Origin: a phage
Sequence record: EF517044.1
Strand: one strand, 5' to 3'
Length of the DNA: 541 nucleotides
Numbering within the stretch: the first letter of the stretch is position 1; each line of letters opens with the position of its first letter. The position numbers and the translations under genes were made by a program. Under the pieces are notes generated by a model that saw nothing but the letters and a program-made list of their open reading frames with translations, was not told the DNA's origin and made no database searches. This document shows positions 2-541 of the stretch, piece by piece.

Positions 2-292
2 ACTGTGGAGGCAGGACGAGATGAGATGGCTGTAGGCTCTCACGCTAAGGATTACAACCACAACTCTATCGGCGTCTGCCTTGTTGGTGGTATCGACGAT
101 AAAGGTAAGTTCGATGCTAACTTTACGCCAGTCCAAATGCAATCCCTTCGCTCACTGCTTGTCACACTGCTGGCTAAGTACGAAGGCGCTGTGCTTCGCG
201 CCCATCATGAGGTGGCGTCGAAGGCTTGCCCTTCGTTCGACCTTAAGCGTTGGTGGGAGAAGAACGAACTGGTCACTTCTGACCGTGGATGA
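2..292 (+). CDS. 3.5: T7-type lysozyme / N-acetylmuramoyl-L-alanine amidase, C-terminal ~96 codons; 5' end lies upstream of the window
   Basis: Open frame from window position 2 (codon ACT) to TGA at 290-292 translates to TVEAGRDEMAVGSHAKDYNHNSIGVCLVGGIDDKGKFDANFTPVQMQSLRSLLVTLLAKYEGAVLRAHHEVASKACPSFDLKRWWEKNELVTSDRG. From memory this is near-identical to the C-terminal part of T7 gp3.5, including the zinc-ligand/catalytic residues His122 (CAT 203-205), Lys128 (AAG 221-223) and Cys130 (TGC 227-229). The ORF track's start at position 5 is an internal GTG valine codon, not the true start. Not verified by database search. Confidence 0.9.
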   Translation, partial: TVEAGRDEMAVGSHAKDYNHNSIGVCLVGGIDDKGKFDANFTPVQMQSLRSLLVTLLAKYEGAVLRAHHEVASKACPSFDLKRWWEKNELVTSDRG

Positions 293-293
293 T

Positions 294-316
294 TAATTGA
301 ACTCACTAAAGGGAGA
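294..316 (+). promoter_or_regulatory. T7 RNA polymerase class II promoter (phi3.8-like), -17 to +6; predicted transcription start at G311
   Basis: TAATTGAACTCACTAAAGGGAGA at 294-316 aligns without gaps to the T7 promoter consensus TAATACGACTCACTATAGGGAGA, with 19 of 23 matches. Mismatches are at -13 (298), -12 (299), -11 (300) and -2 (309); the -10 to -3 core ACTCACT and the +1 to +6 GGGAGA are intact. Position immediately upstream of the gp3.8-like ORF fits T7 phi3.8. Confidence 0.85.
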
Positions 317-334
317 CCACAGCGATTTCCCTTT
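308..334 (+). other. 5' leader RNA stem-loop (GGGAGA...UUUCCC type) at the start of the phi3.8 transcript
   Basis: Inverted repeat seen directly: aaaggga (308-314) pairs with tcccttt (328-334). It extends by g315-t327 (G-U) and a316-t326, around a 9-nt loop ccacagcga (317-325). The part within the transcript (311-331) resembles the 5' GGGAGACC...GGUUUCCC hairpin found at the start of T7 late transcripts such as the phi10 leader. Confidence 0.5.
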
Positions 335-343
335 GTTCGCATT

Positions 344-349
344 GGAGGT
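344..349 (+). promoter_or_regulatory. Shine-Dalgarno sequence for the gp3.8-like gene
   Basis: GGAGGT at 344-349, with 7 nt between GGAGG and the ATG at 356-358. Confidence 0.75.
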
Positions 350-355
350 CAAATA

Positions 356-541
356 ATGCGCAAGTCTTATAAACAATTCTATAAGGCTCCGAGGAGGCAT
401 ATCCAAGTGTGGGAGGCAGCCAATGGGCCTATACCAAAAGGTTATTATATAGACCACATTGACGGTAATCCACTCAACGACGCCTTAGACAATCTCCGTC
501 TGACTCTCCCAAAAGAAAACTCATGGAACATGAAGACTCCA
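356..541 (+). CDS. 3.8: HNH endonuclease-like protein (T7 gp3.8 homolog), N-terminal 62 codons; 3' end lies beyond the window
   Basis: ATG at 356 preceded by a strong SD; frame is open to the window end (no stop, so not in the ORF track). Translation: MRKSYKQFYKAPRRHIQVWEAANGPIPKGYYIDHIDGNPLNDALDNLRLTLPKENSWNMKTP. It contains a DHIDGN...N...NLR...EN motif (codons 452-520) typical of HNH (HNH_3-type) nucleases and matches my recollection of T7 gp3.8. Confidence 0.85.
   Translation, partial: MRKSYKQFYKAPRRHIQVWEAANGPIPKGYYIDHIDGNPLNDALDNLRLTLPKENSWNMKTP

Follow-up and report, generated by a model that had tools for sequence, protein, structure and literature searches.

The element at positions 294–316 of the window (the whole 541-base stretch of phage DNA analysed here) is almost certainly the class II promoter φ3.8 of a T7 derivative, which doubles as the 5′ arm of the RNase III hairpin R3.8 and whose close spacing to the preceding stop codon is a matter of ordinary genome compaction. 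Judged by its sequence, the element is the already known φ3.8/R3.8 region of T7. Indeed, the T7 record has documented φ3.8 from the first sequencing of the genome onwards, together with its sequence, its position behind gene 3.5 and the fact that it overlaps R3.8. In the mechanism that we propose, this one stretch would have three roles, as the end of gene 3.5, as a promoter and as an RNA processing signal. As a discovery it carries little weight, and φ3.8 is familiar to biotechnologists from pLysS. The check removes a tempting, unsupported story, that of a lysozyme gene coupled to a lysozyme-sensitive promoter. It also makes a comparative point, namely that the module directly follows the amidase gene across genera with different polymerase specificities, with a compensatory change at the −2/+23 pair.

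Identity of the window and of its promoter

The whole window is matched without gaps by positions 10870–11410 of T7, at 98.5% identity, and a comparison of the window with the phage collection revealed no closer record. In the T7 records, gene 3.5 ends at 11161, the 'T7 promoter phi3.8' is placed at 11180 and gene 3.8 starts at 11225, which correspond to window positions 292, 311 and 356, respectively. Profile searches agreed with this assignment. The gene 3.5 frame, a 95-residue amidase reading frame closed by the TGA at 290–292, matched Pfam Amidase_2 (E = 1.6e-8) and the PDB entries 1lba and 1aro_L, 'T7 lysozyme' (E = 6e-60), and the gene 3.8 frame matched Pfam HNH_3 (E = 2.1e-15). The features of the window are collected in Table 1. 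A generic sigma-70 promoter and terminator scan of the window gave background-level matches alone, on the minus strand.

Table 1. Features of the 541-base window (positions are those of the window)
Feature	Position	Strand	Basis or remark
Gene 3.5, 3′ part (T7 lysozyme / N-acetylmuramoyl-L-alanine amidase), residues 56–151	2..292	+	T7 CDS 10706–11161
Single spacer base T, between stop codon and −17	293..293	+	Sequence
T7 RNA polymerase promoter φ3.8, −17 to +6, +1 = G311	294..316	+	Identical to annotated T7 φ3.8
Predicted RNA hairpin, RNase III site R3.8	294..344	+	Fold, T7.1 annotation, conservation
R3.8 lower stem (predicted)	294–302 with 335–344, C340 bulged	+	RNA fold of 293–345
R3.8 internal loop (predicted)	303–307	+	RNA fold
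R3.8 upper stem (predicted)	308–318 with 324–334	+	RNA fold
R3.8 terminal loop (predicted)	319–323	+	RNA fold
5′-terminal stem-loop of φ3.8-initiated RNA (predicted)	311..331	+	T7: GGGAGACC-ACAGC-GGUUUCCC
Shine–Dalgarno GGAGGT of gene 3.8	344..349	+	6 nt 5′ of ATG; read from sequence
Gene 3.8, 5′ part (HNH endonuclease), continues past window end	356..541	+	T7 CDS 11225–11590

The promoter sequence, TAATTGAACTCACTAAAGGGAGA, agrees with the consensus TAATACGACTCACTATAGGGAGA at 19 of 23 positions and departs from it at 298 (−13T), 299 (−12G), 300 (−11A) and 309 (−2A); the first six transcribed positions, GGGAGA, are fully consensus. All 23 bases are identical to those of the annotated T7 φ3.8 (coordinate 11180, V01146 / NC_001604). 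A search of the window with the full consensus and up to three mismatches found nothing because φ3.8 carries four of them, and the promoter was located using the core pattern together with scripted consensus scoring. The core CTCACTAWAGGGAGA occurs once in the window and in none of 200 dinucleotide-preserving shuffles, and no other site with at least 13 of 23 consensus matches was found on either strand of the window. By its place between genes 3.5 and 3.8 on the rightward strand, the promoter is orthologous to the T7 site. The flanking genes are the same in both, as are the distances from the stop codon to +1 (19 nt) and from +1 to the ATG (45 nt). The stop codon is TAA in T7 and TGA in the window (position 291), and transcript position +15 is G in T7 and A in the window (position 325).

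The original prediction, which was that of a class II promoter off the consensus and with G311 as its putative +1, is borne out by the sequence. It had described a TGA at 290–292, one further base and the −17 T at 294, and base 293 is indeed the sole spacer; the departures that it listed, TGA at −13, −12 and −11 and A at −2, are exactly those found. The promoter is the annotated T7 φ3.8, and G311 coincides with the annotated T7 +1 at 11180. The assignment to class II is based on the non-consensus sequence and on the location among class II genes. The −2A had been called a T3-like base, which is consistent with the T3-type promoters of related loci (AATTAACACTCACTAAAGGGAGA). Promoters of that type (AATTAAC[A/C]CTCACTAAAGGGAGA) share −2A and the positions from −9 to +6 with φ3.8. 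A T3-type identity was rejected for the element itself, as its positions −12 to −10 read GAA, not the T3-type ACA or ACC.

The four consensus mismatches, which include the specificity position −11, might suggest a chance or decayed promoter-like sequence that is inactive. We consider this practically negligible: the element is identical throughout to an annotated promoter and is conserved across T7-group phages, its core did not arise in the shuffles, φOL has −11A as well, and φ3.8 works on pLysS (PMC8601162). The variant in the window would thus be expected to be an active φ3.8, from which T7 RNA polymerase would start at G311 and proceed rightward into gene 3.8 and the gene 4 primase/helicase region.

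Eight positions of the window differ from T7 (51, 115, 132, 218, 291, 325, 466 and 503), none of them within 294–316. All eight are transitions, seven of which are G:C to A:T relative to T7. The change at 291, from A to G, turns the T7 stop TAA into TGA. In the lysozyme, two changes affect conserved residues, G72D (Gly in 46 of 48 relatives) and A99V (Ala in 47 of 48), and a third, P128S, replaces a Pro found in all 48 relatives beside the KAC motif. Gene 3.8 has a single change, A to T in LRLALP. This pattern looks like that of a chemically mutagenised or heavily passaged T7 and not of a natural relative. The 325A variant had no exact match in IMG/VR or in the metagenome contigs, and the junction variant with the TGA stop had none in IMG/VR. 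According to the fold predictions, the eight transitions would leave the promoter intact and weaken the hairpin that overlaps it.

Stop codons, promoters and the lysozyme gene

Class II promoters are weaker than class III promoters and are more readily shut off by T7 lysozyme. As φ3.8 begins one base after the lysozyme stop codon, the original prediction implied a coupling between that gene and its neighbouring promoter. This part found no support. In T7, the +1 of φ1.3, φ1.5, φ1.6, φ2.5, φ4.3, φ9 and φ17 is located exactly 15 nt past the upstream stop. These seven, out of 16 promoters that follow a gene, overlap the stop codon by 3 nt, their own TAA at −17 to −15 being the stop, and they include the class III promoters φ9 and φ17. 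With 19 nt between stop and +1 and its one-base spacer, φ3.8 is more loosely placed than all seven. The class III promoter φ10, unlike φ3.8, lies 13 nt beyond the upstream stop. In K11, four promoters overlap the upstream stop by 2 nt. As for the promoters that follow gene 3.5 in other phages, those of K11 and K30 (Klebsiella, Przondovirus) are found at the amidase stop with a one-base spacer, like φ3.8, and that of Yersinia phage fPS-9 overlaps the amidase stop by 3 nt. Promoters abutting stop codons are a general trait of these genomes.

We extended the comparison to 48 IMG/VR loci that carry the core motif. The +1 is 19 nt past the amidase stop in 31 of them, and 15 nt and 21 nt past it in one locus each. 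Three more loci harbour another repeated promoter-like element right at the amidase stop. In the remaining 12, the same promoter abuts or overlaps the stop of an inserted small ORF, which shows that adjacency to the lysozyme gene is dispensable. The near-zero spacer is therefore ordinary compaction of T7-group genomes and no lysozyme-specific device.

These data weigh heavily against a functional coupling, whether as feedback or as coordinated control, between the lysozyme gene and an abutting lysozyme-sensitive promoter, and we regard it as highly improbable. Seven T7 promoters, two of them of class III, are nearer to their stop codons, and in a quarter of the relatives (12 of 48) the promoter is kept apart from the amidase stop by a small ORF. 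The 19-nt distance, found in both the T7 and the K11 groups, could be taken as a sign of coupling, but shared ancestry of this homologous region accounts for it, given that the final amidase codons are also conserved. Moreover, φ3.8 fires away from gene 3.5, so that it does not transcribe the lysozyme gene in the linear genome of the phage; for this reason, we rejected an autoregulatory loop in the phage itself. A feedback loop between lysozyme and T7 RNA polymerase has been described on the circular plasmid pLysS, on which φ3.8 transcripts circle into the lysozyme gene and φ3.8 drives T7 RNA polymerase-dependent lysozyme expression (PMC8601162). In the literature, φ3.8–lysozyme feedback is restricted to that circular plasmid. 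The description of class II promoters as shut off by lysozyme also speaks for coupling, and it enters the work in question as a modelling assumption (PMC6938266). The searchable literature yielded no usable data on the lysozyme sensitivity of φ3.8 and no usable primary data on class II versus class III promoters. As φ3.8 has an initiation region of the class III type, any extra sensitivity would need either weaker binding in the upstream part or an open complex of lower stability, a source that we infer from the sequence only.

A few features of the junctions can be added. In T7, the junction (region 290–297) reads TAAT followed by TAATTGAAC, and in one relative (L013) it reads TAATTGAAC, with the stop TAA at −17 to −15. 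Relative to that locus, the one-base spacer of T7 looks like the outcome of a 4-nt tandem duplication of TAAT. The three loci with a different repeated element at the amidase stop are L022, L026 and L027; the element is TAATAACGACTCACCTAGGGAGG in L026 and L027 and CAGGGCTCACCAAAGGAGA in L022, and each recurs elsewhere within its own locus. Based on their sequences, these elements are probably promoters for polymerases of other specificity. The small ORFs were found in L010, L011, L012, L018, L021, L024, L025, L033, L036, L039, L040 and L043, approximately 100 nt past the amidase stop. In T3-type loci the inserted ORF codes for a Cys-rich peptide (MRMICIRCDKPLKSRVPSRQCQCK...). Hydrophobic peptides of 28–32 residues are encoded in K11-type loci (MVTQALIIFGLPILIV...) and in L010 (MIIHEMGLYDLIYHLAFLLAMVYVLTRN).

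Departures from consensus and promoter strength

We compared all 17 annotated T7 promoters, φ3.8 among them. Within this set, −2A is common to φ3.8, φ1.5, φ1.6, φ4c and φ4.3, and the TGA block at −13 to −11 is unique to φ3.8. Taken singly, −11A is found elsewhere only in φOL and −13T only in φ4.7. φ3.8 is also the sole class II promoter with a fully consensus GGGAGA at +1 to +6. It is identical to the class III promoter φ10, the one used in pET vectors, from −10 to +6 except at −2, at which φ10 has T; φ10 also differs in having ACG at −13 to −11. φ3.8 would thus be a weakened version of the consensus, perfect at +1 to +6 and altered at −13 to −11, in the upstream part that serves binding and specificity, and at −2.

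Activities of promoter variants measured in vitro at high throughput are available in the S2 file of PMC5937735 (Komura supplement), and the values given here are those of the searched portion of that file. The wild type, represented by five barcodes, has activities of 142–188. The −13T change alone gives 192, −2A alone 161 and 138, and the −13T/−12G double mutant 118, and the multi-mutants that include −11A range from 1.8 to 14.8 (PMC5937735). In the same source, 93% of the active variants keep G at −11. Neither φ3.8 in its exact sequence nor −11A as a single change is present in the searched portion of the S2 file. Thus, as far as this portion goes, −2A, −13T and −13T/−12G are nearly neutral in vitro (PMC5937735). 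By inference from these values, −11A is likely the main weakening base of φ3.8, and the costliest of its departures in the mechanism proposed here. By the same reasoning, the T3-like base at −2 would count little for strength.

The R3.8 hairpin in T7 and its relatives

The original prediction made no mention of the fact that φ3.8 forms the 5′ arm of R3.8. The same two-stem hairpin is present at the same place in T7, from −17 to +34. The T7.1 record has a 'possible RNase III site R3.8', as a stem-loop from −16 to +33 of φ3.8. When folded, the T7 sequence gives −19.5 kcal/mol (z = −4.74), with none of 200 shuffles as stable, and the window −12.8 kcal/mol (z = −2.46), with 4 of 200. The hairpin of the window is approximately 6.7 kcal/mol weaker than that of T7 because 325A, a G in T7, breaks the C317–G325 pair. 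Through this change, RNase III processing or 5′-end stability may differ from that of wild-type T7, if the fold predictions are right. An Rfam scan of the window, with E up to 10, matched no family, and R3.8 has no model in Rfam.

In the T7.1 record (L003, 532), a single coordinate is assigned both to the putative RNase III cut and to the mRNA start of φ3.8, probably as a placeholder or by an error of annotation. The cut coordinate of R3.8 is reportedly 11203 (Dunn & Studier 1983), which corresponds to window position 334. In PMC6938266, R3.8 is used as a cleavage site and is treated as a pair with φ3.8, the start site being 5′ of the cut, and RNA abundance shows a sustained drop 3′ of R3.8.

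The whole hairpin is present only in read-through RNA of upstream promoters, and φ3.8-initiated RNA retains just the 5′-terminal stem-loop of it. We therefore envisage two kinds of transcripts. Read-through RNA would form the two-stem R3.8 and be cut, so that the lysozyme message would carry a hairpin at its 3′ end. Transcripts initiated at φ3.8 would have the short 5′ stem-loop alone, in a leader resembling that of φ10. The first 22 nt of the φ10 and φ3.8 leaders are one base apart (GGGAGACCACAGCGGTTTCCCT vs GGGAGACCACAACGGTTTCCCT) and form the same 5′ stem-loop. In T7, a GGGAGACC-loop-GGTTTCCC stem-loop is located 3′ of φ10 (L056, 22904–22930). In K11, the post-3.5 promoter is followed by the same stem-loop, and φ9 and φ17 by similar ones (L057, 20241–20270 and 33175–33204 for these two). 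From these sequences, the 5′ stem-loop appears to be a recurring promoter-proximal module and not peculiar to the post-lysozyme site.

An alternative hairpin can be drawn in 338–360, with CGCAUUG (338–344) paired with UAAUGCG (354–360). It would hold the AUG of gene 3.8 in its stem and the Shine–Dalgarno sequence in its loop. As it uses positions 338–344 of the R3.8 lower stem, the two folds are mutually exclusive, and RNase III cutting or a start at φ3.8 could therefore change the translation of gene 3.8.

The promoter-plus-hairpin module follows the amidase gene in 45 of the 48 IMG/VR loci with the core motif. It is also found in K11, K30 and fPS-9, each with its own type of promoter. These three phages share the GGGAGAC...GUUUCCC hairpin with T7, with −3 to −1 paired in K11 and K30. 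Unlike T7, each has an upstream sequence specific to its own polymerase (CATTAGGGCACACTACAGGGAGA in K11). An alignment with MAFFT misplaced the 3′ arms, which were out of register between the T7 and K11 groups on account of loops of unequal length, and the pairs were tabulated from each sequence's own fold. Each of the 31 distinct sequences is predicted to form the R3.8 upper stem. At −2/+23, 11 of them (T7- and T3-type) have an A:U pair and 19 (K11-type) a C:G pair; K11-type sequences, unlike T7, have C at −2, paired with G. Among the 31, these two positions are unpaired only in fPS-9, which retains T at −2. In two T3-type loci (L012 and L021), positions +5 to +7 are remodelled and the pairing is retained. 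Judging from these sequences, the covariation of R3.8 across genera is real but modest, because the independent events are few, the sequences representing three or four clades and not 30 events.

In the predicted fold, all four non-consensus bases of φ3.8 are paired (−13U:G, −12G:C, −11A:U and −2A:U, the last with +23). The need for pairing in R3.8 might thus hold the bases at −13 to −11 and at −2, at least in part, and the weakness of the promoter would be a side effect of the RNA processing signal or selected jointly with it. This idea complements the identification of the element as φ3.8 with ordinary spacing, and we put it forward tentatively, as somewhat unlikely. According to the fold, a consensus ACG at −13 to −11 would lose two of the three pairs there. 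The −2/+23 pair has changed on both sides between genera, from A:U to C:G, and the post-3.5 promoters of T7 and K11 are both off their own consensus at −2. In K11, the post-3.5 promoter is alone in having a base other than T at −2 among 13 annotated promoters. Nevertheless, the 3′ arm belongs to an untranslated leader and can adapt to any promoter sequence, so that the promoter need not deviate for the sake of pairing. Furthermore, A or G could serve as a partner for the consensus T at −2, −2A is also found in φ1.5, φ1.6, φ4c and φ4.3 without such a hairpin, fPS-9 has an unpaired T at that position, and the independent evolutionary events are few. The broader proposition is that, throughout the T7 subfamily, the post-amidase promoter is coded for two functions at once, its departures from the consensus of each phage (at −2 in T7 and K11, and at −13 to −11 in T7) being maintained because these bases take part in the RNase III hairpin of read-through RNA; in our view it is unlikely. 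If it were true, a single sequence would set both how strong the promoter is and how mRNA is processed at the junction of genes 3.5 and 4.

Lastly, the gene that follows the module varies. It is the HNH gene 3.8 in T7 and in fPS-9 (L006), an ORF for 31 residues in K11 (L004) and, in several loci of the T7 group (L009, L015 and others), another ORF. In K30 (L005), gene 4A comes directly after the module. Such diversity fits gene 3.8 being a mobile HNH insertion, in which case the promoter would chiefly serve the gene 4 region.
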